This document shows, in pieces, positions 42,057-62,459 of a stretch of DNA of 64,000 nucleotides. Location: positions 1 to 64,000 of the forward strand of contig JAPSGB010000018.1 of NCBI GenBank assembly GCA_035063585.1, given 5' to 3'. Position 1 is the first letter of the stretch. The number at the start of each line of letters is the position of its first letter. The notes under the pieces are model-generated. The model worked only from the letters and a program-made list of their open reading frames with translations. It did no database searches and had not been told where the DNA came from. This DNA comes from Polyangiaceae bacterium. GTDB lineage: Bacteria; Myxococcota_A; Polyangia; Polyangiales; Polyangiaceae. Position numbers and translations under genes: made by a program.

Positions 42057-42171
42057 GCTCTCTCCTTTTCGCGACGTCGCGCACGTCGCGGCACCCAGGA
42101 TAGTCGTGGGCCCGTGGTCGCTGCAAGCTCCCGTCATCGACGAACTTCCGAAGGTGTGCCTTGATCCGCGC

Positions 42172-43968: not shown

Positions 43969-44048
43969 CGCGAACGTCAGCGATACGAATCAACGCCTCG
44001 TGGGACGCCACCGGCCGCCGCTCGTCGCGGCTGACGTGAACGTCAGCG
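43960..44048. repeat. Two 23-bp palindromic direct repeats between convergent genes (possible terminator or REP-like element)
   Basis: cgcggCTGACGYGAACGTCAGcg at 43960-43982 and 44026-44048, separated by 43 bp. Confidence 0.7.
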
Positions 44049-44894: not shown

Positions 44895-44896
44895 GT

Positions 44897-45883: not shown

Positions 45884-46641
45884 GATGTGCCCGCGCGCGA
45901 GCTTGCCATGAATCGCCGCACGGCAATAACGAGTGTCTCGCGCGCGATCGCCCACGCTTCGGTGGGCCGGGGGACCGCGCCGAGGCGGCCGACCCGCAGC
46001 TCGAAGCGGGCGCGACCGGCGGTGCGCGCGAGGTGCGTGACTGGCACCTCGGCGAGCCGCGCGCCCCGCGCGAGCGCGCGGCCGAGGAGCTCGGCGTTGA
46101 TGACGCCAGTGCGGCTGCGGAGGGGCGGGCCCTCGACGAGGCGCGCGCGGACGAGCTTGAAGGCGCAGTCGAGATCGGTGACGCCAGAGGTCCCGGTGAG
46201 TCGGGTCGCGACCTCGCCGTAGAGCCGGCTCGCGGCGCGGCGCGCCAGCGAGTCGTGACGCGACGCGCGGTAGCCAACTACCAGATCGCGCCCGGGGGTG
46301 AGAGCGACCAAGCGGGGAAGCTCGGCGTGGTCGAACTGACCGTCGGCGTCGGTGAGCAAGAGCCACTCGAAGCGCGCAGCCTCGAGCCCGAGCGCGAGCG
46401 CGCGCCCGTAGCCCGGATCGGCCGCGCGCTGGGTGAGCACGCGCACGTCGCCCCGCACCTCTGCGAGCCGGCGCGCGAGCTCTGGCGTGCCGTCGCGGGC
46501 GCGCTCGCTCACCACCAGGAGGATCTCGTGCGACGACGCTACCTCGACGAGCGCCCGGCCGAGCCGTGCGACCACGCCCGGCAGGTTCTCGACCTCCTCG
46601 AAGCACGGTAAGACCGCGCTGATGGCGAGCCGCTCGGTCAC
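45880..46641 (-). CDS. Glycosyltransferase family 2
   Basis: VLPCFEE, GYGRAL, TDADGQFD, DLDCAFKL. Confidence 0.88.
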   Translation of the reverse strand: MTERLAISAVLPCFEEVENLPGVVARLGRALVEVASSHEILLVVSERARDGTPELARRLAEVRGDVRVLTQRAADPGYGRALALGLEAARFEWLLLTDADGQFDHAELPRLVALTPGRDLVVGYRASRHDSLARRAASRLYGEVATRLTGTSGVTDLDCAFKLVRARLVEGPPLRSRTGVINAELLGRALARGARLAEVPVTHLARTAGRARFELRVGRLGAVPRPTEAWAIARETLVIAVRRFMASSRAGTS

Positions 46642-47243
46642 GGGTGAGCGATGCGCCGGCGGAAACCGTCGGTGATCAAGTGCTCGAGCGCGCTGTGCGC
46701 GCTCTCCACGATCCCGAATTTTCGGCTCTGGAGCACCAAGGCATGATCGACCAGCGCGCGCGCGCGCCCGCCGCCGAACCCGAGGATCCCGACCGTCACC
46801 GCGCCGTGATCGCTGGCGGCGCGCACGGCGCGGAGCACGTTCTCCGAGTCGCCCGAGGCGGTGAGCACGATCACGATGTCGCCGGCCGCGACGTTGCTCG
46901 CCACCTGCTCGGAGAAGACGTTCTCGTAGCCGAGATCGTTGGCGAGCGCGGTGAGCACCGGCACGTTGTCGTTGAGGCTACTTACCCGCAGCCGCTTGCC
47001 GCTGCGCGCGGCAGCCTGCAAGTCGCACGCGAAGTGCGACGCGGTCGCCGCGCTCCCACCGTTGCCCATGATGAGCACCGCGCGGCCGGCGCGGTGCGCG
47101 TCCGCGAGGAGCCCGACGATACGCTCGACGGCGCGCTCGTCGATTTCCCCGAGCGCAGCGACGAGCTCGTCGAGGAACGCCCGGGTCGGACTCGGCTCGA
47201 GCCGGCTCACTGACTTCAGGGGCGGGTGCTTCGCAGAGACCAT
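46638..47243 (-). CDS. gmhA: SIS-domain phosphoheptose isomerase
   Basis: MGNGGSAATASHFACDL, LTALANDLGYENVFSEQ, TASGDSENV, ESAH. Confidence 0.85.
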   Translation of the reverse strand: MVSAKHPPLKSVSRLEPSPTRAFLDELVAALGEIDERAVERIVGLLADAHRAGRAVLIMGNGGSAATASHFACDLQAAARSGKRLRVSSLNDNVPVLTALANDLGYENVFSEQVASNVAAGDIVIVLTASGDSENVLRAVRAASDHGAVTVGILGFGGGRARALVDHALVLQSRKFGIVESAHSALEHLITDGFRRRIAHP

Positions 47244-47282
47244 GACGAGCCTCGAGGTCGGGCCCTCATTATGGCACCTCGG

Positions 47283-48524
47283 TCACCCGTTCGCGATGCC
47301 TTCCGCCACGAGGCGCATCACCTCGAAATCCTCGAGAGGGAGCAACTCGACCCCAGCCCCGAGCCTCCCCGCGAGCGCGGCGTGTCGCACGAGCGGCGCG
47401 TACACCGCGCGCACGGCGGAGAGCGGGATGGGCGAGCCGACCAGCCGCTCGTCCGTCCAGGCGTAAGCCGGATCGGCACGACAAGAGAGCCCGGTCGAGT
47501 CGATCGCCAGCAACACCGGGAATTGCGCCTTCAGCGCCTCGAGGATCCGCGCCTTCTCGGCCGTCCGCGCGGCGTCGTCCTCGGGCAGCGCGCAAAGCAG
47601 GCGCGCCCGGAGCGCGGGCGCGTGAGCGAGCACCCCTCTGCGCAGCCGATCGGCGGCCGGCGTGGAAGGAAGCCTCGGAGCCCGCGCCATCCGCATCACG
47701 ACCGCCGCCAGCGCGTTGTTCACCGCGGTGGCGTGGTCGGCGGGCGGACCGAGGCGACGGCTGTACTGGCGGCCGTCGCCGGGGAGCGCGTCGCGTGCCG
47801 CCCGCTCCAAGACCTCGTCGAAGGCGGCGCAGAGGGCCTGCTCCATCTCGAGAGTCCGGTAGCGAACGAGGCTCCGAGCCTTCTCGAGCCACTCTTCGGT
47901 AACGCGCGGCTCGCCCTGAGCGAAGAGCAGCACGCTGACGAAGGCGGCGAGCGGCACATGCCCCGCGCGGACCGCCGAGATCGTGAGCTCAGCTCCGGTG
48001 GAGTCGGCGTTCGTGTGAGCGAAGGTCGCCGCAGCGTAGAGCGCGACCACGCTCCGCGCGAGGCACACGAACACTTCCGGCTGCTCGATCCCGGTGAGCG
48101 CGACCTCGCCGGTGTAGCCATCACCACCCGGACGGAGCGCGCTATCCCGCAAGATCCCGTCGAGCGCCCATGAGCCAGTGCCATGGATCCAGTAGCCGCT
48201 GCGGAGGAGCGCCGCGAACCGTGGGAGCGTGTCGAGCGCGAGCGCGGCCCCCGCCGCTCCGGCCTGCGAGTACGCGACGCTCACGGCGCGGGAGAGCCGG
48301 CGCTCGAGCTCGGCCGCCGTGACGTCGTCCACGCAGTGCGCTCGAGGCTCGAGGGCTCGCGCGAGCCGGGCGGCACGCGCGAGCCACTCCTCCGGCGCAG
48401 CCGGCACGTCGAGGAGGCCTTGCTGGCCGGAGAGCTCGACGAACCGGCGCGGCAGCTCCCCGTACACGGCGCTCGAGTCCTCGGTCGGCGCGTCTTCACC
48501 GAGCTCCGAGCCGTCTTCGCTCAC
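47283..48524 (-). CDS. Hypothetical protein (possible ADP-ribosyltransferase-like fold)
   Basis: GTGA-coupled to the upstream radical SAM gene; WIHGTGSWALDGILRDSALRP segment. Confidence 0.55.
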   Translation of the reverse strand: MSEDGSELGEDAPTEDSSAVYGELPRRFVELSGQQGLLDVPAAPEEWLARAARLARALEPRAHCVDDVTAAELERRLSRAVSVAYSQAGAAGAALALDTLPRFAALLRSGYWIHGTGSWALDGILRDSALRPGGDGYTGEVALTGIEQPEVFVCLARSVVALYAAATFAHTNADSTGAELTISAVRAGHVPLAAFVSVLLFAQGEPRVTEEWLEKARSLVRYRTLEMEQALCAAFDEVLERAARDALPGDGRQYSRRLGPPADHATAVNNALAAVVMRMARAPRLPSTPAADRLRRGVLAHAPALRARLLCALPEDDAARTAEKARILEALKAQFPVLLAIDSTGLSCRADPAYAWTDERLVGSPIPLSAVRAVYAPLVRHAALAGRLGAGVELLPLEDFEVMRLVAEGIANG

Positions 48525-50137
48525 TTGTCCCCGAGCGGCGTGAGGCGCGCGAGGCCGATGCGGCGCGCCAGGTTGACGTGCACGCCGCCGCAGGTATCCG
48601 CCACGCGACAGGTGCGGCAGCGAACGCTCTTCGTGCGGTCCAGGCGCCGGAGAAACAGGTGGGTGAAGCCGACCACGTCGAGGCTGTTCGGACCCTTCAC
48701 GGCGATCAGATCGATGACGTCCTCCTCCGGGGGCAGCTCCGCTCGCGAGCGCGCGAGGCAGGCCGGCAAGCCCGCCACCGGCAACTCAGTGGCCTCGGCA
48801 GCGCGCGGGTCCACCCCGTGGCGCTGCTCGTCACGCATGCGCTCCCAGGTCGGCACGACGACGAGCTCCGCGCGTGCGCGGAGCGCTGGCGTTGGCTCTG
48901 CCCCAGCGCTCAGTACGAGCCCGACCCGTTCGGCGGGCGAGAAATCCGTGGACGGCGACAGGACCGCGTCGGCGCGGACCAGGAGCATCGCCGAGCGCGG
49001 TACGGGCCCGTCACCCAGCTCGTCGATTTCCACGATCGCGGGCGGCTCCTCGAGCTGGAGTTCCTCGAGCGCTCGACGCACGGTGTCGCCGTGGCGCGCC
49101 ACGAGCCAGAGCCGGCGCTCGCCACGCACCGAGGCGAGCAGGGTCAGCTGACGCTCATCGTCGAGATCGCAGCGCACGATGGCGCGCCTCCCGGCAAGCA
49201 AGTCCTTGCGTAAGGCGTAGAGCGCGTCGCAGAACGGACGCCGATAACACACTCGGCACGCCTCACCGCGGCAGAGAATGTCCTCTCCAGCCTCGGCAAA
49301 CCGGCTGAAGAGTCGGGTGCGAAGCTCGGTGTCCTTGATCTCCGGCAGATACTCCTCGTGATGGACGTACTCCGTCTCGAACCCCTCGAAGTAGTCGGCA
49401 GGGAAGAGCTTCGGGCGAAACTCGAGGCCTAGCGCCTCGGCGACGCTCCGCGCCTGCGCGACATGCGGACGGGCGGCCTCATCATCGAGCCCGAGCTCAT
49501 CGAGAGACTCGAAGAGCGCGCGCCCAGCCGGCGCGACCCTCACCGCGGTGAGGCCCGCTACCCCCGGAATCAAGGTCAACAGCTCGGAGAGCTGGCTCAC
49601 GTTGACCTTGTTCACGACCGTCGAGAGGCTGACGCGACAGCGCCCGGTCGCGAGTAGATTCTGGATACCCGCGCGCGTCTGCTCGAAGGAACCGGGATTC
49701 TGGCTGAGGTGGTCGTGCGTCGCCGCGTCGCGGCCGAGCACGGCCACGAACGCCTCGCTGAGCCCGCGCGCGACCGCGCGTTTCGCGAACGACTCATAGG
49801 CGAACATGCGACCGTTGGTGATGACCGTCACGCGCTCGGCGCCGCGGTCGCGCGCGTAAGCGATGACGTCGAGGAAGCGCGGGTGGATGGTCGGCTCACC
49901 TCCTGAGAGGAAGACCCGACGGACGCCCTGTGCGAGACCCTCGTCGATCATCGCGGTCATCGCCTCGAAGTCCCAGAACGTGCCGTCCTGAAAGGGCGCG
50001 TCGTTGCAGAACCGGCAATGATTGTTCGAGGCGCGGCTCATCTTGAGGAAGATCTCGCCGCGCCGACGGATCGCTATGGAGAGCGTCTCGGCCTTGTTCT
50101 CGACGATCTTCAGCCGGAGGTCGGGGCGAGCGAGCAT
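48521..50137 (-). CDS. Radical SAM protein, HxsC-like paralog 2, with degenerate motif (SxxxCxxC)
   Basis: SNNHCRFC, LSGGEPTIHP, TNGRMF, CRGEACRVCYRRPFC, TKSVRCRTCRVADTCGGVHVN. Confidence 0.85.
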   Translation of the reverse strand: MLARPDLRLKIVENKAETLSIAIRRRGEIFLKMSRASNNHCRFCNDAPFQDGTFWDFEAMTAMIDEGLAQGVRRVFLSGGEPTIHPRFLDVIAYARDRGAERVTVITNGRMFAYESFAKRAVARGLSEAFVAVLGRDAATHDHLSQNPGSFEQTRAGIQNLLATGRCRVSLSTVVNKVNVSQLSELLTLIPGVAGLTAVRVAPAGRALFESLDELGLDDEAARPHVAQARSVAEALGLEFRPKLFPADYFEGFETEYVHHEEYLPEIKDTELRTRLFSRFAEAGEDILCRGEACRVCYRRPFCDALYALRKDLLAGRRAIVRCDLDDERQLTLLASVRGERRLWLVARHGDTVRRALEELQLEEPPAIVEIDELGDGPVPRSAMLLVRADAVLSPSTDFSPAERVGLVLSAGAEPTPALRARAELVVVPTWERMRDEQRHGVDPRAAEATELPVAGLPACLARSRAELPPEEDVIDLIAVKGPNSLDVVGFTHLFLRRLDRTKSVRCRTCRVADTCGGVHVNLARRIGLARLTPLGDK

Positions 50138-50310
50138 GGGTCGAGCTGACGAGGAGGCGTCGAAGACGCGCAGTCTACACCGGAGCGCACCCGGTCGCGA
50201 GCCGGCCGCCTGCACCGGCACCCGCGCTCTCCGCTGGTCCAAGGACCGCCGCTCGCGGGGCGACGGCTCACGCGCCTTCGATGCGCGTGGTAGTGTGGGC
50301 GCGCGAGGCG

Positions 50311-51393
50311 ATGCGGATCCTGCTTGTCACCAACGAGGGCCGAGGGCGGTACGCTGGCCGGCGCTTCGAGTGGCTGGGCATGGATCTTACCTATTCGAGT
50401 TTCACGTTCGAGGCGCTCGTACGCTTTCGCGACGCACCCGACGCCCGCCCCGTCATCCATCGCCAAGCGCTCGAGCGCGCCCTCGAGGAACTCGAGGCCT
50501 TCGACGGCGTCGTGGCCGAGGAACCGGAGACGGTGCTGCTCGAGTACGTCCGGCGGCGGCGAGGGCTCGCGCGCAAGCGCTGGCTGGTCAACACCGTGCA
50601 GCTCTTCCGCCGCGCGGGGCCGCTTCGGGAGTTGATACGAGCTCACTATGGCGAGGACCCGCTAGCGGTGGTGGCCGCGGACCCAAGCCTTCACTGGATC
50701 GTCACCACTTCGGCGCATCGCGAGCAGCTCACCGCGCTCGGCGTGCCCGACGAGCGCTCGAGCTACATCCCAACGACGAGCGCCATCCAGACCGGCTTCT
50801 TCCCCGACTCGACGCCTGCCTTCGTCGCCGGCCGGCGCGCAGCGCTCCCGCAGACCCTCGAGAGCCTGCGAGGCCAGGTGCTCCTGGCCGGCACCAACCA
50901 TCGAGATCTTCCCACCCTCGCACGAGCCGCCGCGCTCTTGCCGGCGCCCGTCCACGTGCTCACGGATCTCGAGCGGAACCAGCGGGTAGAGTCGCCGCAC
51001 CTCCGCTACCACGGGCTGGTCCCACTCGACACGTTCATCGGCGCGGTGGCCCACGCGGGCGTGCTCGTGCTCCCGCTGCTTCCGACCACCGAGAGCTGCG
51101 GCCAGCAGACGCTCGCCGCCGCACAACGCGTCGGCACGCTCGTGGTCGCCAGCGACGTGCCCGCGCTGCGCGACTACATCGAAGACGGCCGGTCCGGGTT
51201 TCTGGTGCGACCGGACGACGCGGAGGCGCTCGCACTCGGCATCGAGCGAGCGCTCGCTCACCGCGATGACGAGAGCATCATCGCGGCCGGGCGCGCTCGC
51301 GACGAACGGGACGCCCAGCGCATCATCGAGCTCATGCACCGCGTGTTCGCCGGCGACGGGGGTCGGCTTGAGAGCGCTCGGGCGTCGGGATAG
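50311..51393 (+). CDS. Glycosyltransferase (GT4/GT-B-like)
   Basis: MRILLVTN; C-terminal ESCGQQTLAAA...VVASDVPALRDYIEDGRSGFLVRPDDAEALA. Confidence 0.75.
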   Translation: MRILLVTNEGRGRYAGRRFEWLGMDLTYSSFTFEALVRFRDAPDARPVIHRQALERALEELEAFDGVVAEEPETVLLEYVRRRRGLARKRWLVNTVQLFRRAGPLRELIRAHYGEDPLAVVAADPSLHWIVTTSAHREQLTALGVPDERSSYIPTTSAIQTGFFPDSTPAFVAGRRAALPQTLESLRGQVLLAGTNHRDLPTLARAAALLPAPVHVLTDLERNQRVESPHLRYHGLVPLDTFIGAVAHAGVLVLPLLPTTESCGQQTLAAAQRVGTLVVASDVPALRDYIEDGRSGFLVRPDDAEALALGIERALAHRDDESIIAAGRARDERDAQRIIELMHRVFAGDGGRLESARASG

Positions 51394-51402
51394 AATCACG
51401 GA

Positions 51403-53382
51403 GTGACCTCGGAATTCGGCCGGCGTGTCTATCTCATCCAGATATGCAACGTCTTCGCCGACAGTATCTACCTCCCGCTCGCCGCCGGGATGTTGCGCGC
51501 GTCCGCCGCCTCGGATCCCGAGGTCGGTGCCGCGTTTTGCTTCGCGCCCATCATCAACGAACGCTTCGATCTGAGCGAGGTAGGGACGCGAATCGAGGCG
51601 CCAGCCGTGGTTGGTCTCTCCACGTACATTTGGAACTGGGAGTACAGCCTGGCGCTCGCGAAGAGGCTGAAGTCGCTGTACCCGAACGTGCTCATCGTGG
51701 CGGGCGGCCCCCAGATCCCGGAAGACTCGAGAGCGTTGGTCGCCGACGGGCCGCTCGACGTGACGGTCCATGGGGAGGGTGAGCTCACCTTTACGGAGCT
51801 GCTTCGAGCGCTGGCGCGAGGAGCGGCGCTCGAGACGGTGGACGGGGTGACGACTCGTACCGCGCGCGGCGCGTCGGTCGCGCCGCGTCGCCCACGCATC
51901 GAGCACCTCGATGCGCTGCCGTCACCGTTCCTTCGGGGAGATTTCGAGGATCTCTTGAGCGGAGGCCGTTCACTCATCGGGCTCTGGGAGACGAACCGAG
52001 GCTGCCCGTTCGAGTGCGCGTTCTGCTACTGGGGTTCGGCGGTAAACACCCGCGTTCGCGAGTTCGACATGAGACGCCTGCTCGCCGAGCTCGCCTGGTT
52101 CGAGGACCATCGAATCGACTATGTCCTCTGCGCGGACGCGAATTTCGGGATCAAGAAGCGAGACCTCGAGATCGCGCAGAGCGTGGTCGCGGCCAAGCGT
52201 CGGAGCGGGTTTCCCCGAAAATTTCGGGTCTTCTCTACCAAGAATGCCTCGGAGCGCGTGGTCGACGTCATGGAGACGCTACGCAGCGAGGGCCTCGACA
52301 TGGGGCTCAGCCTGACCATGCAGTCGCTCGACGAGAGCACGCTCGCGGCCATCGGCAGAAAGAACATCAAGCTCTCCACCTATCTCGAGCTTCGCCGCGA
52401 GGCCGGGAAGCGTAACATGCCAACCTACTGCGATCTCATCGTGGGGCTCCCGGGGGAGACCTACGACTCGTTCTTGGACGGGCTCGACCGCTTGATGTCG
52501 CTCGGCCAGCACGACAACGTGCACGTCTATACCTGCACGCTGCTGGTCGGCTCAGCGATGGCAGATCCGGCCTACCAGGCCGAGCACGGCCTCGTGACCG
52601 TCGAGAACCCCATCCTCGAGCGCCATATGCGAGCGGACGCCATCCGCGACACCAGCATCCCCGAATACGAACGGGTAGTGGTCGCCACGCGAACCATGCC
52701 AAGAGAGAGTTGGATCGAGACGAACACCGCGACCGTCCTCGTGAACGTCCTTCATTATCAGAAGGTTGGGCATTTCATCGCCATCTACCTCCACCACGAG
52801 CACGGGGTTCGCTATCGCGACTTCTACGAACACCTCGTGCGCCGAGCGACCGACTCGGAGGCGTTCCCGAGGCTCGCGGCCGTGCTCGGGTTCACTCGCG
52901 CCTACTATCGCTCGCTCACCGAGGGGCGCGCCGAGCGGCTCACCTTCCCGGAGTTCGGCAACGTCGTGTGGCCGGTCGAAGAGGCCGCGTTCCTCCTCGC
53001 CTCGAAGGACTTCGACGCGCTCTTCGAGGAACTCCGTGCGCTCGTCCTCGAGCTCGGGCGCGCAAACGAGCTCACGCTCGATGCCGCGCTACTGTCGGAG
53101 CTCGTCGACTATCAGCGCGCGCTGGTCCCGCGCCCTTCCGGTCCGGTCGCGCCCGAGCTCACGCTCCGCCATGACTGGCCCGCCTACTTCCAAGCGGCGC
53201 TCGGCGAGGAGCCGGCGCGGCTCCGTACCGCTGAGGTCCGTCTGAGAGTCCTCGATCAGCACCAGGCCGGCGGCGATGTCGCGACTTACGCTCGCAAGGT
53301 CGCGTGGTACGCGCGCTCATCCACCGACATCCCCTACCACCTCGAGCGCCTCTCGCCAGCGCGAGCGCAGGTGACTCCGTAG
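51403..53382 (+). CDS. Cobalamin-dependent radical SAM protein
   Basis: B12-binding-type YLPLAAGML, VVGLSTYIWN, AGGP, GEGE; ETNRGCPFECAFC; DANFG; IVGLPGET. Confidence 0.9.
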   Translation: MTSEFGRRVYLIQICNVFADSIYLPLAAGMLRASAASDPEVGAAFCFAPIINERFDLSEVGTRIEAPAVVGLSTYIWNWEYSLALAKRLKSLYPNVLIVAGGPQIPEDSRALVADGPLDVTVHGEGELTFTELLRALARGAALETVDGVTTRTARGASVAPRRPRIEHLDALPSPFLRGDFEDLLSGGRSLIGLWETNRGCPFECAFCYWGSAVNTRVREFDMRRLLAELAWFEDHRIDYVLCADANFGIKKRDLEIAQSVVAAKRRSGFPRKFRVFSTKNASERVVDVMETLRSEGLDMGLSLTMQSLDESTLAAIGRKNIKLSTYLELRREAGKRNMPTYCDLIVGLPGETYDSFLDGLDRLMSLGQHDNVHVYTCTLLVGSAMADPAYQAEHGLVTVENPILERHMRADAIRDTSIPEYERVVVATRTMPRESWIETNTATVLVNVLHYQKVGHFIAIYLHHEHGVRYRDFYEHLVRRATDSEAFPRLAAVLGFTRAYYRSLTEGRAERLTFPEFGNVVWPVEEAAFLLASKDFDALFEELRALVLELGRANELTLDAALLSELVDYQRALVPRPSGPVAPELTLRHDWPAYFQAALGEEPARLRTAEVRLRVLDQHQAGGDVATYARKVAWYARSSTDIPYHLERLSPARAQVTP

Positions 53383-53384
53383 CC

Positions 53385-54095
53385 ATGCGGATCTCGTTCT
53401 TCTTCCCGGCCTACCACGACGAGGCGACGGTCGAGCCGCTCGCTCGGCGGCTCGACGAGGTGCTCGGCGAAGTCTGCGATGAGCACGAGATCATCATCGT
53501 CGACGACGCGAGCCCGGACCGCTCGGGACGGATCGCAGACGAGCTCGCCGCAAGGAATCCCCGGATCCGCGCCATCCATCACCCGGAAAACCGAGGATAT
53601 GGGCAGGCCGTGTGGAGTGGGCTCACGGCCGCCCGCTACGAGTGGGTCGGCTTCACCGACGGCGACATGCAGTATGACGTCGCCGAGCTGCCGCGCTTCA
53701 TCGAGGCGGCGAGAGCGGGGGCCGACGCCGTCATCGGGTACAAGACGAGCCGAGCCGAGGGGTGGAAGCGAGAGCTCACGAGCGCCGCTTACAATCGCGC
53801 GATCCGCCTCCTGCTCGGGCTCGAGCTCACGGACATCGACTGCGCGTTCAAGCTGATGCGCCGGAGGCTCGTTACCGATTACACCCCAAGCACCTACTAC
53901 GCCGAGGCCTTCATCATGGTGGAGGCGCTCTACAAGGCGCAGCGGAGTGGCGCACGCATCGTCCAAGTTCCGGTATCCCATCATCCGCGCCTCGCTGGAG
54001 AGTCGCAGTGCTTCACCTGGCGAACCGCGCGCCGCCTCGCGTGGAACACCGCGCGTGGCGCCGTCTACGGGAGGCTGCTCGGCGCGTGGCGATGA
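53385..54095 (+). CDS. Glycosyltransferase family 2
   Basis: FFPAYHDE, IVDDASPD, NRGYG, TDGDMQYD, DIDCAFKL. Confidence 0.9.
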   Translation: MRISFFFPAYHDEATVEPLARRLDEVLGEVCDEHEIIIVDDASPDRSGRIADELAARNPRIRAIHHPENRGYGQAVWSGLTAARYEWVGFTDGDMQYDVAELPRFIEAARAGADAVIGYKTSRAEGWKRELTSAAYNRAIRLLLGLELTDIDCAFKLMRRRLVTDYTPSTYYAEAFIMVEALYKAQRSGARIVQVPVSHHPRLAGESQCFTWRTARRLAWNTARGAVYGRLLGAWR

Positions 54096-55432
54096 GCGCG
54101 CGGGAGGGACTTGGCCAAGCGGTCGTGCTCTGCGGCGGGCAGGGGCTCAGGCTGCAGCGCGTCCTCGGCGAGACGCCCAAGCCGCTCGCGCCCATCGCGG
54201 GCGAGCCGCTCCTCGGGCATCTCCTCGAGGGTTTGGGTCGGTCCGGCGCGGAAGAGGTGCTGCTCGTGGCAGGACACCGCGCGGAGCATCTCGCGCGGGC
54301 GCTGCCGAGCGTCACGCCTCGCGGACTCCGGGTCGAGCTCATTGTCGAAAAGGAGCCGCGAGGCACTGCCGGCGCGCTCCTCCAGATCGAGCAGAAGCTG
54401 CGGGAGCGCTTCCTCCTCGTCTACGGAGATCTCTTCACTGACCTTGATTTTCGCACCTTCGCGAGAGCCGCCGGCGCGCGCGGCGGGCTCGGGACGCTGC
54501 TCGTCCACCGATCGAGCCACCCCGAGGACAGCGACGTGCTGGCCGTCGACGACGCGCAGCGGGTGATCGCGTGGCTGCCGCGTGGCCCCGCGCGTCCGCC
54601 AGGCGCGGTCGTGAGCGCCGCGGCGCTCACCAACTCGGCGGTGGGTGCGTTTCACCGCTCGCTGCTCGACTACATCCCTCGCGATCGCGCGTGCGACCTC
54701 TACGGCGAGGTGCTACCGGCGTTGATCGACGCGAGGGCGAGCGTTCACGGCTACCTCTCCTCCGAGTACGTGCGCGACATCGGGACGCCAGAGCGCCTGT
54801 CCGCGGTGGACGCCGACGTGCGAGCCGGGAGGACCCGGCGACGCGCGGACATCGCGTTGCTCGATCGCGACGGGGTCTTGTCGCCCGAGGCGCCGCCGCT
54901 GGTGGATCGCCGAGCGCGACTGAGCCTCCTCCCCGGAGCCGCGGCCGGCGTACGGGCGCTGAATCAGGCCGGGCTCCGCGTGGCAGTGGTCACCAACCAG
55001 GCGATCGTCGCGCGCGGACTCTGCACGCCGAGTGGGCTCGAGGAAATTCACGATCGTCTCCGCGAGCTTCTCGCTCGAGAGGGAGCGACGCTGGACGCCA
55101 TCTACGCGTGCCCACATCACCCGGAGACTCATCACCCCGGCGGCGTGGCGGCGCTGCGGGGCCCGTGTCGCTGTCGCAAGCCCGCCACGGGCATGGTCGC
55201 CGACGCGCTGCGCGACCTCGCGGTCCCGGCCTGGCGTGCGCTCGTCGTGGGCGACTCGTCGGTCGACCTGCAGCTCGCGCACAACGCCGGCCTCGCGGCG
55301 GCCGCGGTCGCCACCGGGCAGGGCGGGCGCGACGGCAGGCACCCTGCGCGACCCTCCTGGCGCTTCGCGGATCTCGAGCATGCGGCCGCTTGGATCGCGG
55401 GCGGCGAGGCGAGCGAGCCCGACGTCACGTGA
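54092..55432 (+). CDS. Fusion of sugar-1-phosphate nucleotidyltransferase (HddC-like) and heptose bisphosphate phosphatase (GmhB-like)
   Basis: LCGGQGLRL, PKPLAPI, GTAGAL, YGD, DIGTPER; then LDRDGVL, VTNQ, CPHHP, CRCRKP, VGD. Confidence 0.9.
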   Translation: MSAREGLGQAVVLCGGQGLRLQRVLGETPKPLAPIAGEPLLGHLLEGLGRSGAEEVLLVAGHRAEHLARALPSVTPRGLRVELIVEKEPRGTAGALLQIEQKLRERFLLVYGDLFTDLDFRTFARAAGARGGLGTLLVHRSSHPEDSDVLAVDDAQRVIAWLPRGPARPPGAVVSAAALTNSAVGAFHRSLLDYIPRDRACDLYGEVLPALIDARASVHGYLSSEYVRDIGTPERLSAVDADVRAGRTRRRADIALLDRDGVLSPEAPPLVDRRARLSLLPGAAAGVRALNQAGLRVAVVTNQAIVARGLCTPSGLEEIHDRLRELLAREGATLDAIYACPHHPETHHPGGVAALRGPCRCRKPATGMVADALRDLAVPAWRALVVGDSSVDLQLAHNAGLAAAAVATGQGGRDGRHPARPSWRFADLEHAAAWIAGGEASEPDVT

Positions 55433-58400
55433 TAGACTCGGCCCGCGTGCACGCGATCGGTCCGGTGACGAAGGTCGAGCAAGAGCTCCTCCAGCTCGAG
55501 CTCGGGCTGAAGTCCGCGCTCAAGGTCGAGCACGCTGGCCCCGAGCTGGAGGCCTGGCTGCGCGCCGAGGCAGCGCGTCGTGGGCTCTCGGTACTCCCGG
55601 ACCGGGAGCCGACGCCCTCCTACGCGGGCGTCGAGGCGGAGCTCGCCACCTCGCTCTTCGTCGGTCCGAACGAGGCGCTCCTCGCCGAGCTGCGCGAGTG
55701 GTCGCATCGCCAACGCGACCCGCACGCGCAGAGCAGCGACAAGGCGGCGGCCATTCGCAGCATCGGCGCGGCGCTCGGATATCCGAGCTGCTGCGTCGAG
55801 GCCTACATCGCAGGGCGGGAGTTTCCGGACCAGTCGCTGGTGTTCCTGCGGCCGTTGTTCGCGACGAAGGGCACTCTAGAGCCTCTGCTCAACCTCGCCG
55901 GAAACGACGAGCTCATCAGTCATGTACCGTGCAGCTACGGGTGCGGAGCGAGCTTGGAGCTCGCGCGACGCACCGCGCACGAGCTCGAACGACGAGAGCC
56001 GAGTGTCTGGCACGCGCGGTGGGCGCGAATGTGTGCGCCGGTGCTCGTCCTCGGGCCACGAGGGCTGGTTCGCCTCGAGCCGCGCCCGGACGACGCGGCC
56101 ACTTGGGGCGGAGTACGCTACGCGAGGGCAGACTCCTCCATGCTCTCCGACGACGCGCTCCGAGCGGCGCTCGAGAGCGGCGACGAGCTCGTGCTTCGAC
56201 CGAGCTCGGTCGAGATCAGGCGCGGGGGGCAAGCGACCTACCGCGAGCGGCGCGCGGGTCCGCTGGACCTTCCTGTCCTCCTCCGCTTCGGGGGCGCGGC
56301 TCGTCGCCCGGCGCGGGTCGCGTTGGTAGATCTTCACCGGTCGCTCATCGACTACATGGACACGATGACGCTCGCGATGGCGTCGGGCGATCTGACACGG
56401 CTCGGCGTGTCGAACGAGCTCGTCCGGCTGTACGTCGATCGCGAGAGGCCGGAGACCTGGGAGAGATCATACCTTCGTCTGGAACGGTACTTACTCGACC
56501 ATCAGTTCACGGCCGCCGTCTGGAACATGGCGTTCGACGACGGGGTCGTCTCGCGACTCGGCCGCGCGGGGATGCTCCAGGTGCTCATCGACAGCCGGTT
56601 CTCGGGCGCCGCCGTCCCCTTCGATTTCGTGCTGACCTCGGCATCCCGCCAGGCGTTCTGCCGATTCTTCAGGCTCTGGTGCGAGGGAGAGGAGGATCCG
56701 GAGGTTCGTGAGCTCCTCTCACACAAGAGCGATGGTGGCTGGAGCTCCCACGCCCTCGCGGAGCCGTTGGCGCAGAGGGCGCGCATCGATGAGGACTCCT
56801 TCTGGCCAACCACGCAGTACGTCGTGCCGGACGGCGAGCACCGGCCGGCGAGCGACGTCTGGCACTTGTGCGTGAACCCCGGGTGCCCGTATGGCAAGCG
56901 GCTCGACGACAACCCTCATTTCGAAGGGCTCGAGCTCCCGGACTCGGCGAGCGCGCGCGGGTGCTCGTTCTGCGAAGAGGGCGGCGACTACGAGGGCGCT
57001 CCCGCGGAGCCGACCATGCGGGGGCTCCTCCACCAGTTCGAGTACATAGCCAGGCGCGCGCCGCACTCGCGCTTCATCCTGCTCGAGCGAGCCGTCTTTC
57101 GCTTCCTCGAGCGCTTCCTGGTGCGCGCCGATCAGATCTCGCGCGGCTCCGCGCGCCGCGGTCAGCGGCTGGAGTTCTTCGTGACCGCGCGCACGGACGA
57201 GATCGTCCGCGAGCAAGCACATCTCCGCGAGGCGCTCGTGGTAGCCGCCGAGCGCGGCCTATTGGTGAACCTCTACCTGGTCGGCATCGAAAGCTTCTCG
57301 CAGACCGCGCTCGATCTCTTCAATAAGGGCACGCGTGTGGAGGTTCAAGTCGAGGCCATCGAGATCATGCGCGAGCTCGAGGCGGCGTTCCCCGGGACGT
57401 TCACGGCCTCGCGGAGCTCCGCGCACGGCTTCATGTTGTTCACCCCATGGACGACCATGGCCGAGCTCGTGGAAAATTGCGAGTGGATGGAGCGCACTCG
57501 GTTCTGGGAGTTTCGCTCGGAAGCCACCTTGAGCAAGCTCCGGCTCTACCCGACGGTACCTCTCTTCTACAAAGCTCGCGCCGAGGGGCTCCTCGCCCCG
57601 GGGTACGACGATGAAGAGTTCGACATGTCGATCCGCCTCGGCTACTCGAAGGAGGTCCCCTGGCGGTTCATCGACGCGAAGGTGGAGGCCGTGTATCGGC
57701 TGCTGGCCGCGGCCGCCGATCACTATCCGCGGGGTTCCCGTGAGCTCACGTTGCTCCGTGACGCGATCGCGGAGGTCGAGACGCACGGCACCGAGGTCGA
57801 CGCCGAGACTTTTCACGCTCCTCGCCGCGCCCGGCGCGCCGTCCGACCCGGCCTCGGCCGCCCGCGACGCCGGCGCTTCACCTTGGCCCTCGGCTCGCGC
57901 TCGAACCTCGGCTGCACCTACTACGACCATGGAGACGAGGCTCCGCCACCGCCCCGCGAGGAGCTCGCACAGCGGCTGCTCGACGGGCGGAAGACCGGCG
58001 AGAGCGCGGTGACCCTCGGGGGCGCCGAGCCGCTGCTCTCGCCCTCGCTGATGTTCGCCGTGCGAGCTGCGCGGCGGTGCGGATACTCGAGCATCGCGCT
58101 CGAGACGAACGCGCTCGGGCTCGATACGGCGCGGATGACCGCGCTCCGCGAGGCCGGTCTCACACGAGTGCTGCCGTTCCTCCCGGCCTGGGATCGCGAG
58201 CCGATCGACCGCATCGCGCGCGTAGCAGGAGCCGCGGCGCTGCTCTTCCGCGCCGCGCCGGCAATCGAAGGCTCGGGGCTCGAGGTCCAACCGGTGATTC
58301 CCGTCGCTCGGGAGACGCTCGCAGAGCTGCCGCGCTTCGTCGAGCTGGCAGAGCTCCTGTTCCCCTCGGCTCGCGGGCTCGCGCTCCGCTTCTTCCCGTC

Positions 58401-58719
58401 GGAGGGCACGCTCCCCCACGCGCGCACGGATGGTCCAGGTGAGCGTCCGCTCGTCCGCTTCGTGGAGGCGGCCGACAGCGCTGGCCTCGGCGTGACTCAG
58501 GTCGCGGACGTGATCGTCCCTCCGTGCGCGTTCTCCGACACGCGCGCGCTCGAGGGGCTCATGGTGCTCGACACCCCACCGTCCGCGGACTTCCGCCGGA
58601 TCCCGGAGTGTAGCGGCTGCGCGCTCGTCGAGCGGTGTCGCGGGGTCTCGGAGGGATTTGCGCGCGCGTTTCCGAACGCGCCGCTCACCTCGGTGCGCTC
58701 CAAGCTACCGGCGCAGTGA
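55429..58719 (+). CDS. Multidomain protein (~1096 aa): DUF483-like domain, class-B-like radical SAM (CX25CX2C) and degenerate radical SAM/SPASM domain
   Basis: GTGA-coupled start; LGYPSCCVE, SHVPCSYGC; GCPY...RGCSFC, GIESFS, FNKG, FMLFTPWTT; SNLGCTYY, GGAEP, ETNA, CSGCALVERCRG. Confidence 0.75.
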   Translation: MIDSARVHAIGPVTKVEQELLQLELGLKSALKVEHAGPELEAWLRAEAARRGLSVLPDREPTPSYAGVEAELATSLFVGPNEALLAELREWSHRQRDPHAQSSDKAAAIRSIGAALGYPSCCVEAYIAGREFPDQSLVFLRPLFATKGTLEPLLNLAGNDELISHVPCSYGCGASLELARRTAHELERREPSVWHARWARMCAPVLVLGPRGLVRLEPRPDDAATWGGVRYARADSSMLSDDALRAALESGDELVLRPSSVEIRRGGQATYRERRAGPLDLPVLLRFGGAARRPARVALVDLHRSLIDYMDTMTLAMASGDLTRLGVSNELVRLYVDRERPETWERSYLRLERYLLDHQFTAAVWNMAFDDGVVSRLGRAGMLQVLIDSRFSGAAVPFDFVLTSASRQAFCRFFRLWCEGEEDPEVRELLSHKSDGGWSSHALAEPLAQRARIDEDSFWPTTQYVVPDGEHRPASDVWHLCVNPGCPYGKRLDDNPHFEGLELPDSASARGCSFCEEGGDYEGAPAEPTMRGLLHQFEYIARRAPHSRFILLERAVFRFLERFLVRADQISRGSARRGQRLEFFVTARTDEIVREQAHLREALVVAAERGLLVNLYLVGIESFSQTALDLFNKGTRVEVQVEAIEIMRELEAAFPGTFTASRSSAHGFMLFTPWTTMAELVENCEWMERTRFWEFRSEATLSKLRLYPTVPLFYKARAEGLLAPGYDDEEFDMSIRLGYSKEVPWRFIDAKVEAVYRLLAAAADHYPRGSRELTLLRDAIAEVETHGTEVDAETFHAPRRARRAVRPGLGRPRRRRFTLALGSRSNLGCTYYDHGDEAPPPPREELAQRLLDGRKTGESAVTLGGAEPLLSPSLMFAVRAARRCGYSSIALETNALGLDTARMTALREAGLTRVLPFLPAWDREPIDRIARVAGAAALLFRAAPAIEGSGLEVQPVIPVARETLAELPRFVELAELLFPSARGLALRFFPSEGTLPHARTDGPGERPLVRFVEAADSAGLGVTQVADVIVPPCAFSDTRALEGLMVLDTPPSADFRRIPECSGCALVERCRGVSEGFARAFPNAPLTSVRSKLPAQ

Positions 58720-58721
58720 CG

Positions 58722-60398
58722 CTATTTCTCGAGCTCGGGCTCCTCGTCGACCACCGGCTCGAGCGCGGCGTAGCCGTGCGCGCGCACGAAGTTGATGTGA
58801 ACGCCAGGGCATGTCGAGTCATACTTGCAGGTCTGGCAGCGGCGGCTCTTGGTGTAGAAGCGATCTGCCACGAAGCGGTGCGTGAAGTGCGTCATCTCGA
58901 GCTTGGCGTCGAGCCCGAGCATCCCCGCATCGAGCGCTGAGCCAATCGCCAGCGGCTCACGGCCTCCGATGCACGGGGGAATGTTCTCGGTCTCGACCTC
59001 GGGGGGGAGCGCGGCGAGGAGCGCGCGAACGTCCACGTCATTGCGCCGTTGCTCCGTCACCCGCTCGTAGTTCGGCTGCACCACGATGAGGCGCGGCGCG
59101 GTCGAGCCGAGGCGACGCAAGGCGTCCGCCGTGCCCTTGTTCGCGTAGACGGCGACCGTGAAATCACCCGGGACCTCGACGAGCCGCGTGAGCTCCTCGC
59201 AGCTGCTCACGTAGCAGCGCTCGAGATGCTTCCCGCCGAGCGTGCCGTCACCGGCGAGCGCGTTGGCGAGGCCCGTGTAGTCGGTGAGCTCGAGCCAGAG
59301 CGCGGGCGCCTTCGCGAGCTTCGCGAGCTCGAGCGCGCGCTCGACGGAACCCGCGACCACCCGCACCACCTTCGCGCTCGGGAGGGTGCCCGGGGCCGGC
59401 GCTGGATCCTCGAGCCGAAGGACGTCCACCTCGCCGAGCCTGCGCTCCTCGATGACTGCGTCGAGTGTGTCGCAGAGGGGGCTCAAGTAGCAGTAGTGAC
59501 AGCGCTCCGGCTGCCGGCAATGCAGCGGCTCTCCGGTAGCGAGGTACTTGTCGTACTCCTCGCGCCGTCCCCTCACCTCGTCGTGGAGTTTGTGCGGGTC
59601 TTGGATGAGCTCTTCGAAACCCTCGGTGAAGGGCGGCGGAAAGCGGTTGAGCCAGATATGGATGTCAGGACGACGCGAGTATTCGAACGCCTCGCGGAGG
59701 GACTCCTCGTTCCCTTCGAGGTCATAGAACAGATGCTCTCGAGCTTTCCCCCACGCGCTCCCGAACGGGATGATGTGGAGGAGGTCGAACTCCTTCACGC
59801 CCCAGCCGATGAAGGTATCGAGCATGGTGGGGAGATGCTTCACGTTCTGCTTGTTGATGACGATGTCGACGTTGACGATGAACCGACCGTCGGCGAGCGC
59901 GGCCTTGAGCCCGGCCGTCTCCTCTACGAACGCGCCCGGCGTCCCGACCAGCGCATCGTGGAGCTTCGGGGTGTGCCCATGGAGAGAGAACGTGATCTCG
60001 TCGAGCCCGTTTCGCGCGGCCGTCTCGAGGAAGTCGGGGTACGCGAACATCCTGCCGTTCGTCACCGTCTGCACCTTGGGATAACCCGCTCGCTTCCCGA
60101 GCTTCACGAAGTCGAGAAAGTTCGGGTGCATGGTCGGCTCGCCTCCGCTCAGGATGAGGCGCGCCGCGCCCTTCTTTCGCCCCTCGATGATCTGGACCTT
60201 GATGTCCAGATTGGCGCGCATGGTGCCGTTGTGCGCCATGGTGTCGAGGCAGAACGAGCAGTGGTTGTTGCAATCGTAGCTGAGCCGGACCCAATTTCTC
60301 TTCTCGTGGGCGGCTTGCTCGTGATCCTCGACCTTCTCGAGATCGTCCGCGGCGGAGGTCAGGGTATTCGGAGCGACGGCGTCGTGTTCCGCAATCAT
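58722..60398 (-). CDS. Radical SAM protein, HxsC-like paralog 3 (probable core maturase)
   Basis: CNNHCSFC, LSGGEPTMHP, TNGRMF, CRQPERCHYCYLSPLC, TKSRRCQTCKYDSTCPGVHIN; ATGA-coupled to the methyltransferase, in the same-strand run with the precursor. Confidence 0.9.
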   Translation of the reverse strand: MIAEHDAVAPNTLTSAADDLEKVEDHEQAAHEKRNWVRLSYDCNNHCSFCLDTMAHNGTMRANLDIKVQIIEGRKKGAARLILSGGEPTMHPNFLDFVKLGKRAGYPKVQTVTNGRMFAYPDFLETAARNGLDEITFSLHGHTPKLHDALVGTPGAFVEETAGLKAALADGRFIVNVDIVINKQNVKHLPTMLDTFIGWGVKEFDLLHIIPFGSAWGKAREHLFYDLEGNEESLREAFEYSRRPDIHIWLNRFPPPFTEGFEELIQDPHKLHDEVRGRREEYDKYLATGEPLHCRQPERCHYCYLSPLCDTLDAVIEERRLGEVDVLRLEDPAPAPGTLPSAKVVRVVAGSVERALELAKLAKAPALWLELTDYTGLANALAGDGTLGGKHLERCYVSSCEELTRLVEVPGDFTVAVYANKGTADALRRLGSTAPRLIVVQPNYERVTEQRRNDVDVRALLAALPPEVETENIPPCIGGREPLAIGSALDAGMLGLDAKLEMTHFTHRFVADRFYTKSRRCQTCKYDSTCPGVHINFVRAHGYAALEPVVDEEPELEK

Positions 60399-61321
60399 TC
60401 GCGTGTCTCCGGGAGTCTCTGATAGTGAAGTAGCCACTGGTTGCTGGTCGAGGGTGCGATCTCTCGCCGCTCGAGGAGGGCGAGCGGGGCTCGGGCGAGC
60501 AGCGCGTCGACCTCGCGGGTAGAGTCATTGCGAAAGTGCTCGAACCTCGCCGAGCTCGCCTCGGCGCGCGCCACCTGCGCGCGCGTCCGCACCAACCCGA
60601 ACGCCACGTTGTCCACGACGAGCAGCGTCCCTCCCACGCGGAGCCTGGTGATGACCGAGCGAAGCGTCGCGTCTGGGTCCGGCAGGTGGTTATAGCTCCT
60701 CAGGATGAGCGCGTGGTCGAAGCGCGCGGGCGCCTCGCCCAGCGCGTCGAGCTCCCCCACCTGGTAGTCAGCCCAGGGGTAGCGCGACCTTAGCACCGCG
60801 ATCCGACCGGCGTCCGGATCGAGCCCGAGGTAGCGGACCTTGCCCGTCATCGCGCGCGGCGTGAGCGCGTCGAGGTATGGGCCCTCGCCGCAGCCGACGT
60901 CGAGTACGTCCCCGTCGAGGGAACGGAGCAACTCGCGCACCCGCGCGTCATCGCGCTGGAACACATCGACCGAGACGGCGTGGAAGCAGCCCGGGCAGCG
61001 CTCGCGAAGCTCGCAGTCACGACACTCGGCGTCTAGCTCGAGCTTGCGCAGATCGGCGGAGAAGTCGTCCGGGGCGAGCTTGGTCGAGATGTCGACGTAG
61101 AGCTGCCCGAACTCGTATTTTGTGTCCGCGACCTCTCCGGGAGAGAAATCGGTCGTCGCGGTGCGGTGGAGGCGCATCCGATCGCGGAGCCGCACGAAGA
61201 CGTCACGGAGCGGCTCGACACGCGCGAGCGGCGCGCCTCCGCTCCGCAGCGGACACGCTCCCCGAGCGCTGCGCGGGACGTCGAGGACTGGCTCGAAATT
61301 GAAGGAGTTCGAGCGCGTCAT
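60395..61321 (-). CDS. Class I SAM-dependent methyltransferase with N-terminal Cys cluster
   Basis: CRDCELRERCPGC then VLDVGCGEG, GLDPD, SYNHL, GGTLLVVD; start is ATG 61321 or GTG 61369. Confidence 0.8.
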   Translation of the reverse strand: MTRSNSFNFEPVLDVPRSARGACPLRSGGAPLARVEPLRDVFVRLRDRMRLHRTATTDFSPGEVADTKYEFGQLYVDISTKLAPDDFSADLRKLELDAECRDCELRERCPGCFHAVSVDVFQRDDARVRELLRSLDGDVLDVGCGEGPYLDALTPRAMTGKVRYLGLDPDAGRIAVLRSRYPWADYQVGELDALGEAPARFDHALILRSYNHLPDPDATLRSVITRLRVGGTLLVVDNVAFGLVRTRAQVARAEASSARFEHFRNDSTREVDALLARAPLALLERREIAPSTSNQWLLHYQRLPETRE

Positions 61322-61406: not shown

Positions 61407-61700
61407 CTACCAGGAGCCGTGGCTACCGTGACTGCCATGGCTGCCGTGGCTGCCGTGGCTGCCGTGGCTGCCGTGGCTGCCGTGGCTGCCGTGGCTACCG
61501 TGGCTGCCGTGGCTGCCGTGGCTGCCGTGCGAGCAGTGCTGGGCGGGAATGACGCCGCCGCTGTCACCGTCGACGCCTGGCGCTTGATCGCAGTTGTCTC
61601 GAGCCTTGTCGATGACGGCGTCTTCCGACTTGCTGAGCATCCCGCGCGCGCTGCGGGTGAAGCTCGGCAGGTTCCCGGGGTTTCCTCTTCGCGTGCTCAT
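61407..61700 (-). CDS. hxsA: His-Xaa-Ser repeat precursor peptide (HxsA-type)
   Basis: 97 aa: 54-aa leader then HCS-(HGS)13-W. GGAGG RBS 5 nt upstream. Repeat variants are all synonymous in this frame. Adjacent to HxsD-like and radical SAM genes. Confidence 0.9.
   Translation of the reverse strand: MSTRRGNPGNLPSFTRSARGMLSKSEDAVIDKARDNCDQAPGVDGDSGGVIPAQHCSHGSHGSHGSHGSHGSHGSHGSHGSHGSHGSHGSHGSHGSW
61413..61529 (-). repeat. 9-bp tandem repeat x13 (CAC GGC AGC = His-Gly-Ser)
   Basis: gctgccgtg units on the + strand, with variants gctaccgtg, actgccatg and ggagccgtg. Confidence 0.95.
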
Positions 61701-61728: not shown

Positions 61729-61953
61729 CTAGCCCATTCCGGTGCGGTGCTGCTCGATGGTGGTACCGAGCGCGTAGTTGGAGAACTCTTCTGCGATCAT
61801 GGCCTCGTCAGCGTCTCCGGTGGAGGTCAGCTTGACGAAATAGACGCCATCCTTCTGCTCGAGCTCGAACTTCGCGTAATCGGCATAGACCTTCACCGCG
61901 GCGTCGACGGCAAAGCCCGAGTAGAGATCGGCGCGGAAGCGGAGCTCGGTCAT
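61729..61953 (-). CDS. Short HxsD-like protein
   Basis: 74 aa, LRFRADLYSGFAVDAAVKVY...AEEFSNYAL; resembles the N-terminal part of the neighbouring HxsD; TGATG-coupled. Confidence 0.7.
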   Translation of the reverse strand: MTELRFRADLYSGFAVDAAVKVYADYAKFELEQKDGVYFVKLTSTGDADEAMIAEEFSNYALGTTIEQHRTGMG

Positions 61954-62459
61954 CAGTGCTTGTCGGCGGGCACCGACCCTCCGTCTTCGCTTGGCTCCGA
62001 GGAGGCCTCATCGCCAGCCTTCATCTTCACGTCGCTGCCCTTCTTCTTGTACTTGTCTTCCCAGCTCATCGCGATTCCGAGCGGATCCTCGAAGGCCGTC
62101 TCGTCGTCGATGTCCATCGCCAGGAGATCGTCGAGCCCGGGCGGCCCGGCAGCGCCCGCGAGGGCCTGCGTCGTGACCTGCTCGATGAGCTGCCGATTCT
62201 CCTCGACGATCTGCCGCCGCCACGCCTGACCAAGCAGCTCGTTCTCGAACTCGCCCGCGAGCTCGCCGAGCTCGCGCTCGACGCCCGGCTTGAGCTTCAT
62301 TCGAACCGACACGCGCGAGGGTGACGGGCGGTCCAAGTGCACATAGCAGCGATCGATGAAGATGTAGGCGGCGCCGTAGATGGCGTCTTTCGGGTAGAGC
62401 GCCTCGTCGAACTCGAGGACGAGGGTATCGGTGTCGATGGTCTTGTCGACGTTGGGCAT
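61953..62459 (-). CDS. hxsD: His-Xaa-Ser system protein HxsD
   Basis: FDEALYPKDAIYGAAYIFIDRCYVHL...AGEFENELL...RRQIVEEN pattern matches my recollection of HxsD; context next to the HxS precursor. Confidence 0.8.
   Translation of the reverse strand: MPNVDKTIDTDTLVLEFDEALYPKDAIYGAAYIFIDRCYVHLDRPSPSRVSVRMKLKPGVERELGELAGEFENELLGQAWRRQIVEENRQLIEQVTTQALAGAAGPPGLDDLLAMDIDDETAFEDPLGIAMSWEDKYKKKGSDVKMKAGDEASSEPSEDGGSVPADKH

Follow-up and report, generated by a model that had tools for sequence, protein, structure and literature searches.

A radical SAM family with a long cysteine loop on a class B scaffold, and its possible link to His-Xaa-Ser repeat precursors

What does a radical S-adenosylmethionine (SAM) protein do when its cluster-binding cysteines depart from the canonical CX3CX2C spacing of the superfamily, and on what might it act? 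This question is raised by a gene for a 1096-residue protein in a stretch of 64,000 nucleotides from a Polyangiaceae bacterium (GenBank assembly GCA_035063585.1, contig JAPSGB010000018.1, positions 1 to 64,000), referred to here as the window. The first two cysteines of its motif are separated by 25 residues, CX3CX2C occurs nowhere in the protein, and hxsA4, the gene for a His-Xaa-Ser repeat precursor, lies 2.7 kb from its end. A preliminary description of this DNA had presented the product as a three-part fusion; the parts that it named are present, but the protein has four modules (Table 1), the B12-binding-like Rossmann domain at about residues 296-465 having been overlooked. The motifs LGYPSCC (C121, C122), HVPCSYGC (C168, C172), GIESFS, FNKG and FMLFTPWTT are all in place. 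Four full-length orthologs (54-67% identity, 94-99% coverage) were compared with it.

The cysteine loop and the radical SAM barrel

The motif C486-x25-C512-x2-C515 was found exactly where the preliminary description had put it. In an alignment of 123 rows (A3), which comprised the window module, 23 of 29 locus hits and 99 of 150 representatives (module near the N-terminus), C486 was kept in 122 rows and C512 and C515 each in all 123, which bears out the expectation of a conserved CX~25CX2C pattern among homologs. Counted by alignment column, regular-expression counts being confounded by extra cysteines in some loops, the spacer was 23 residues in 1 row, 24 in 22, 25 in 32, 26 in 39, 27 in 26, 28 in 1 and 32 in 1. 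The long motif was present in 144 of the 150 listed representatives; among the other six, five matches start past the first cysteine and one has an arginine there. Alignment by hhalign to nine canonical class B cores, drawn from fetched loci and from the window's own genome, placed exactly 22 added columns after GCPY (probability 97.8 local, 98.7 global), and the loop reads as the class B motif GCPYxCxFC interrupted by a clean insertion. Profile alignment and conservation thus both support the 22-residue insertion that had been proposed.

The remaining motif residues of module 3 are E553 (at the GGE position), G619-x-E621 (the ribose motif), K633, L670-x2-PWT and R705. The SAM motifs, judged by the definitions given in PMC9204698, aligned to those of the class B cores and were well conserved in A3, with D or E at position 553 in 104 of the 123 rows, E621 in 100%, K633 in 98% and R705 in 122 rows. 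PF04055 matched the whole protein over two stretches with 48.7 bits (cut-off 29.5). An AlphaFold2 model of modules 2 and 3, with a predicted local distance difference test score (pLDDT) of 90.9 and a predicted TM-score of 0.92, contains the partial triosephosphate isomerase (TIM) barrel that had been anticipated, as do the radical SAM enzymes matched by Foldseek and by structural comparison, where the top 25 rows were all radical SAM enzymes. The three cysteines follow a strand at model residues 186-189 and precede a helix at 235-252, and the block around the loop (model residues 181-230) has a pLDDT of 89-98.

Taken together, the model, the profile alignment and the conservation indicate that module 3 is a radical SAM enzyme on a class B scaffold, with C486, C512 and C515 as the predicted [4Fe-4S] site. 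We consider it very probable that these cysteines would bind the cluster, with the insertion looped out of the way, and that SAM, held by the retained class B motifs, would be cleaved to the 5'-deoxyadenosyl radical as elsewhere in the superfamily. C481 was weighed as a fourth ligand and set aside; it is invariant in five orthologs but lies outside the top four residues at its family column. A subgroup of the representatives (P0108, P0134, P0140, P0145 and P0147) carries a C-x3-C ahead of the loop and an extra cysteine within the insertion, possibly the ligands of a second metal site.

With module 3 as query, 840 clusters were recovered at E<=1e-3, 600 at 1e-10 and 146 at 1e-30. None of 30 members came near any NCBIfam cut-off, only three families being matched, and weakly; the whole window protein scored at best 28.5 bits, under the cut-off, and the best weak matches were ArsL (21-23 bits against a cut-off of 450) and radical SAM proteins with a CUAEP tail. 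As no curated family covers the module, the suggestion of a possibly new subfamily appears fair. In samples of 301 genomes each, the order yielded 62 with the module, one further marginal match having been dropped, and the phylum 65; the two samples overlap in some genomes. Members occur in cultured Polyangium species, where existing annotation reads only "radical SAM protein" or "hypothetical". Scans for CX3CX2C overlook this family despite its hundreds of clusters.

With R, N and C standing for three recurring partners, the architectures of 146 proteins include R, R-N, R-C, N-R, R-C-C, R-C-N and R-C-C-N, with N-R-C in five that form a single clade (FastTree support 100). The domain combination had been described as unfamiliar; it is one of many shuffled arrangements, and the family is widespread, not rare. 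The DUF483-like module was present in 69 of the 301 genomes, 57 of them among the 62 with the radical SAM module, and it shared a chain with that module, on either side, in 72 of the 150 representatives. Viral contigs gave 57 pattern matches with no family member confirmed, phage records none, and plasmids one weak match at 23% identity; Atlas look-alikes of modules 2 and 3 were generic radical SAM clusters, many of them viral. One other locus (L044, G004:C7:30000-49999) holds two long-loop radical SAM genes among four canonical B12 radical SAM genes, together with a gene whose N-terminus seems to resemble nitrogenase iron protein or BchL.

Table 1. Positions of the gene, its modules and motifs, and neighbouring features in the window
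Feature	Position	Strand	Basis
Whole gene, 1096 residues, four modules	55429..58719	+	open reading frame call; four orthologs
Module 1, DUF483-like domain, residues 12-292	55462..56304	+	PF04467; conservation; model; fold searches
Module 2, B12-binding-like Rossmann domain lacking GxS, GG and GE motifs, residues ~296-465	56314..56823	+	model; hhalign; motif counts
Module 3, radical SAM partial TIM barrel, residues ~475-790	56851..57798	+	profile alignment, model, conservation
CX25CX2C motif, C486/C512/C515	56884..56973	+	sequence; family alignment
22-residue insertion G489-R510, conserved N-P-x-F/Y-x-G core	56893..56958	+	family alignment; hhalign
Module 4, MoaA/PqqE-type radical SAM module with degenerate cluster motif, residues 815-1096	57871..58716	+	model-library matches; ortholog comparison
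Module 4 degenerate motif S825-x3-C829-x2-Y832 (SNLGCTYY)	57901-57924	+	ortholog comparison
Upstream co-oriented genes: GT4, canonical B12 radical SAM (51403-53382), GT2, HddC/GmhB-like heptose fusion (54092-55432)	50281..55432	+	library matches
HxsC4-like radical SAM, below cut-off	58722-60437	-	convergent with the 55429-58719 gene
Class I methyltransferase	60395-~61330	-	convergent with the 55429-58719 gene
HxsA4 His-Xaa-Ser repeat precursor, 97 residues, 14 HxS triplets (13 HGS)	61407..61700	-	NF038313, 112 bits (cut-off 55)
HxsD-like protein	61729-61953	-	NF038315, 71 bits (cut-off 41)
HxsD	61953-62459	-	TIGR03976, 62 bits (cut-off 50)

The Rossmann domain and the outer modules

Module 2 shows a five-strand alpha/beta pattern in the model, and hhalign matched it to the B12-binding domain of a class B enzyme encoded nearby in the window (probability 90.7); pairwise BLAST to that enzyme was uninformative and profile alignment was required. 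Such domains carry three cobalamin motifs, GxSxL following strand 3, GG within strand 4 and GE at helix 5 (PMC9204698). None of the three stands at its aligned place in the Rossmann domain of the window protein, which also has no PF02310 match. Loose patterns in 118 Rossmann regions of the family (five more were dropped as too short) returned GxS in 11, GG in 15, GEGE in 1 and GE[H/D] in 26, tallies that come from regular expressions applied to a domain of low conservation. Rossmann-like domains that do not bind cobalamin are known from AprD4 and ArsL homologs (PMC12931638), and this precedent, combined with the loss of most cobalamin motifs, suggests that the family is probably B12-independent. 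The coarseness of the tallies tempers that view, as does GE[H/D] after strand 4 in the 26 members, some of which may still bind cobalamin. If the Rossmann domain does work without cobalamin, the inserted loop may cap the vacated site, and the family would allow one to test directly how the class B scaffold functions after its cobalamin motifs are lost.

The alternative that survives best is a class B methyltransferase that does depend on cobalamin, through B12 contacts that have diverged; its long cysteine loop would touch the corrin, and it would methylate HxsA4 or another substrate. OxsB, CysS, TsrM and TokK have the same Rossmann-plus-barrel architecture, the alignment of module 2 to a canonical B12 domain and the members with GE[H/D] fit such an enzyme, and residues of the cysteine loop touch cobalamin in solved class B enzymes (PMC9204698). 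We nevertheless regard it as unlikely, given that GxS, GG and GEGE are mostly absent, that PF02310 does not match the window protein and that an invariant L-x2-P-W-T replaces the GxIxGxxE region.

The N-terminal module resembles DUF483. PF04467 matched all 46 aligned members at E<=1 (best 9.6e-8), the window module itself scoring 15-17 bits, below the cut-off of 25, and in the nearest Atlas clusters 34-41% of members carry DUF483 (score 0.81), which serves as a lead only. Its conserved features are E19, K28, G-x-LLGYP-x-CC, the aromatic Y126 and H-x-PC-x3-C, and the four cysteines form a probable metal site. Because the rows of alignment A4 had been picked by the GYPxCC pattern, conservation was taken from a separate profile search of the representatives, in whose 73 domain hits each cysteine was present in 72, K or R at K28 in 66 and F or Y at Y126 in 66. 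The module was modelled with a pLDDT of 94.6, and its first ~120 residues matched PDB 2GUK (Z 11.3, root-mean-square deviation (rmsd) 3.6, 106 aligned) and NleE (4R29; Z 7.9, rmsd 3.4, 108 aligned), the next row falling to Z 5.9; a Z under 8, as for NleE, can reflect a common arrangement. Foldseek likewise ranked these two first, at E values of just 0.02-0.03. The structural match covers neither the four-cysteine site nor the last 160 residues of the module. We take 2GUK, a Porphyromonas gingivalis protein of unknown function, to be PG1857/DUF2023.

NleE binds SAM through Arg107, Glu191 and Tyr212, the last of which stacks on the adenine (PMC4239114). By end register Tyr212 corresponds to Y126 of module 1, where F or Y is found in 45 of 46 members; the start of NleE helix 10 also coincides with that of a model helix. 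The pairing of Arg107 with K28 is doubtful, being given by an ungapped start register only and with K28 before strand 1 and Arg107 after it, and Glu191 has no counterpart. It is possible, though doubtful, that module 1 binds SAM. In Bacteroidetes, low iron induces the PG1857/DUF2023 family, which is co-transcribed with a flavodoxin (PMC10434189), so that an electron-relay role for module 1 would fit instead if our identification of 2GUK holds. The module might assist module 3 through its four-cysteine metal site, and less assuredly as a second SAM site. Either role would give DUF483 its first functional hypothesis; literature matches to "duf483" concern other subjects, judging by their titles.

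A search with A4 recovered no stand-alone DUF483-like protein among 8000 candidates, comparison of a module 1 sequence profile with the PDB brought up no meaningful match, and a viral fold search returned uncharacterised proteins only (best E 8.5e-4). The window contains a stand-alone DUF483-like gene (28462-29334, + strand) between an ATP-binding cassette (ABC)/Gld-like transporter operon and a gene that we presume, from its sequence, to be pheT. Family radical SAM and DUF483-like genes adjoin the same presumed pheT at L042 and L045.

Module 4 weakly matched the PqqE, GeoRSP and MoaA models. It has lost two of the three cluster cysteines in the window organism, and no alternative letter was seen at the motif in three DNA runs; the four orthologs all keep CNLxCxxC intact. 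The C-terminal cysteines 1033, 1061, 1064 and 1070 are kept, and no relaxed selection was seen in the module's identity to the two closest orthologs (62-63%), which is near that of modules 1 and 2. In the window organism, module 4 would thus be unable to cleave SAM and may act as a docking or auxiliary-cluster unit. The preliminary description had called this domain HxsC-like. Neither HxsC (TIGR03977) nor HxsC4 (NF038332) matched module 4 or two orthologs at E<=1e-5, or the whole protein at E<=1e-3; the label holds indirectly only, by way of the orthologs' C-terminal modules, which are 32-38% identical to the window protein at 39674-41500, itself an HxsC4 match below cut-off.

Gene neighbourhood, candidate substrate and alternatives

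In the order sample, HxsA4 was found over cut-off in 55 of the 62 genomes with the family and in 41 of the 239 others (one of the 41, G123, being unpublished); in the phylum sample the counts were 54 of 65 and 43 of 236. A His-Xaa-Ser system is scattered across the window genome: a second, near-identical HxsA4 stands alone on another contig (G000:C13:60321-60611), and two HxsB genes above cut-off lie on further contigs (C3:423275-424771 and C30:27949-29448). On this co-occurrence we tentatively favour modules 2 and 3 as a tailoring enzyme with an accessory part in the HxsA4 system, on a class B scaffold and probably independent of B12. That HxsA4 is the substrate seems somewhat likelier than the converse; the radical would then take a hydrogen from its His-Gly-Ser repeats, or from a form already processed by enzymes of the HxsB/HxsC type.

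Several observations weigh against this assignment. Kin share gene content, and the co-occurrence therefore overstates independence. Linkage is loose: of the 55 genomes that carry both, the two genes share a contig in 17, where they lie within 70 kb in 12, 6 of these within 15 kb (the window's included), and are separated by 0.5-1.9 Mb in 4. At the syntenic locus L082, HxsA4 is not at its expected place. The enzyme is not a core component, as 41 of 96 HxsA4 genomes do without it, and its gene is transcribed with sugar genes while hxsA4 lies on the opposite strand.

These sugar genes suggest another substrate, namely a heptose nucleotide, glycan or small molecule made by the adjacent sugar, carbamoyltransferase and halogenase genes, much as AprD4 acts on an aminosugar. 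The GTG start of the gene shares GTGA with the stop codon of the HddC/GmhB-like heptose gene, pointing to translational coupling; the GT2, GT4 and B12 radical SAM genes are co-oriented with it, the same arrangement recurs at the two syntenic loci, L081 and L082, and AprD4 is among the top fold matches. L081 and L082 also have the HxsC4-like radical SAM and methyltransferase order in common. The upstream genes are, however, absent from 20 other family loci, chosen partly for known HxsA4 proximity, where no heptose, glycosyltransferase, NodU or halogenase gene was matched in any of the 20, while a module-4-like radical SAM gene, fused or nearby, occurs in 17 and HxsA4 in 5. The sugar genes could themselves decorate Ser residues of HxsA4, and we judge a sugar-type substrate improbable.

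The window contains a His-Xaa-Ser island in which HxsA4, HxsD, the HxsD-like protein and the methyltransferase are joined by five HxsC4-like radical SAM genes in total, all below cut-off, a KedN5-like B12 radical SAM gene, heptose genes and glycosyltransferases. Four of the five, one with two radical SAM modules (39674-41500), lie at 34662-50242 with a NodU-like carbamoyltransferase and a CmlS-like halogenase or flavin monooxygenase, an unusually rich set of tailoring genes for the surroundings of a 97-residue peptide; a 413-residue open reading frame there (47283-48524, - strand) matched nothing in NCBIfam, Pfam or PADLOC. Directly upstream of hxsD is a Cys-rich repeat lipoprotein-like gene with CNGLDDNC repeats (62482-64254, - strand), seen also at L034, L081 and L082. 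In RNA run X16 the depth is 64 on a contig over 61682-63000, which takes in hxsD, the HxsD-like gene and the gene upstream, against 2-14 for pieces elsewhere in the window, a hint only since contig depth cannot rank genes. A longer HxsA4-type precursor, of ~225 residues with 53 HxS triplets, was noted at L037:1077-1751.

Non-canonical use of SAM, by an aminocarboxypropyl or polar methyl transfer of the ArsL or TsrM kind, or a non-catalytic scaffold in a complex of several radical SAM proteins, appears still less plausible. ArsL and the CUAEP-tail proteins are the best weak matches and the cluster motif of module 4 is already gone, but the ArsL score is far below its cut-off, and the three cysteines, ribose Glu, alpha4a Lys and beta6 Arg are near-invariant over deep divergence, which argues for a working active site. 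A more speculative proposal, to which we give little credence, is a cobalamin-free class B descendant whose loop fills the B12 site and whose NleE-fold, DUF483-like domain, with its four-cysteine centre, would replace cobalamin as a methyl or one-carbon carrier; it would make a carbon-adding modification of His-Xaa-Ser repeats, akin to the +8 Da (+C/-4H) change of HxsA, as part of a myxobacterial counterpart to HXS anti-phage defence.

The genome is a metagenome-type assembly in 79 contigs, but the view that the long reading frame or the degenerate module 4 reflects an error of assembly or sequencing is largely refuted: four full-length orthologs exist, and in three DNA runs, each from a different study, a single contig spans the gene without a differing letter. 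The fusion is real. All 15 runs with the full gene come from wastewater or sludge or are unlabelled, and each is flagged as a possible source of the window DNA, so that these contigs attest to consistent assembly and not to a second strain. Short pieces of the gene (56832-57043 and 58513-58796) also occur in one RNA run, which is not proof of transcription.

Comparison with known systems

No literature was found on the family itself, on radical SAM proteins with CX23-28CX2C, or on HxsA4, HxsC4 or HisXaaSer, in a library that includes few subscription journals. The published HXS system consists of four genes, HxsA-D, and prevents the entry of phage DNA; HxsB, HxsC and HxsD mature the periplasmic, 214-residue HxsA (99.7% in Pseudomonadota), whose mass changes by +8 Da (+C/-4H) (PMC13128918). 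A His-Xaa-Ser repeat protein, HxsB, HxsD and HxsC-like radical SAM proteins all occur in the window genome too, where the genes are scattered and multiplied; the published set has no long-loop enzyme. HxsA4 (97 residues) matched no peptidoglycan-binding domain in a Pfam scan, giving just a weak collagen-like match, and the defence role is thus not automatically transferable. PADLOC 2023, a library older than the HXS paper, matched neither the window protein nor HxsA4. The chemistry of His-Xaa-Ser modification is described as unresolved, reconstitution having failed with insoluble HxsA (PMC13128918), and the present genes offer candidate enzymes together with a short, expressible substrate.

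Among enzymes of known structure, modules 2 and 3 most resemble class B proteins with a Rossmann domain followed by a partial TIM barrel, namely OxsB (5UL2-4), CysS (9N1D), MgmA/QCMT (9CCB), TsrM (6WTF) and TokK (7KDY), at Z 16-20. CysS gave Z 20.4 (rmsd 5.0, 415 aligned) and OxsB Z 20.0 (rmsd 4.3, 417 aligned; Foldseek E 5e-12, sequence-profile E 0.003), MgmA was among the top matches, and AprD4 (6FD2) gave Z 19.1 (rmsd 4.0, 396 aligned, 11% identity). The family has GCPY...C-x-FC, the ribose Glu and the alpha4a Lys in common with the cobalamin-dependent class B enzymes, and differs from them by the 22-residue insertion, by the loss of most cobalamin motifs and by an identity of only 11-16%; the window protein further differs by its fused DUF483-like and second radical SAM modules. 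AprD4 and ArsL provide a further parallel, with the same scaffold and, as in the family described here, an apparent loss of B12 motifs; their gene context is different, and the accessible part of PMC12931638 reports no long loop for either.

Extended cluster loops have been described before. QueE carries CX14CX2C (PMC4389238) and RadicalSAM.org lists variants from CX4 to CX11 (PMC9477430), and in each of these, too, the cluster site is canonical save for a longer loop from the first cysteine to the second. The spacer of the window family, at 23-32 residues and on a class B scaffold, exceeds the variants given in the accessible parts of those two papers. The family is thus not the first of its kind, and it would carry the range of radical SAM spacers well past the 14 residues of QueE.

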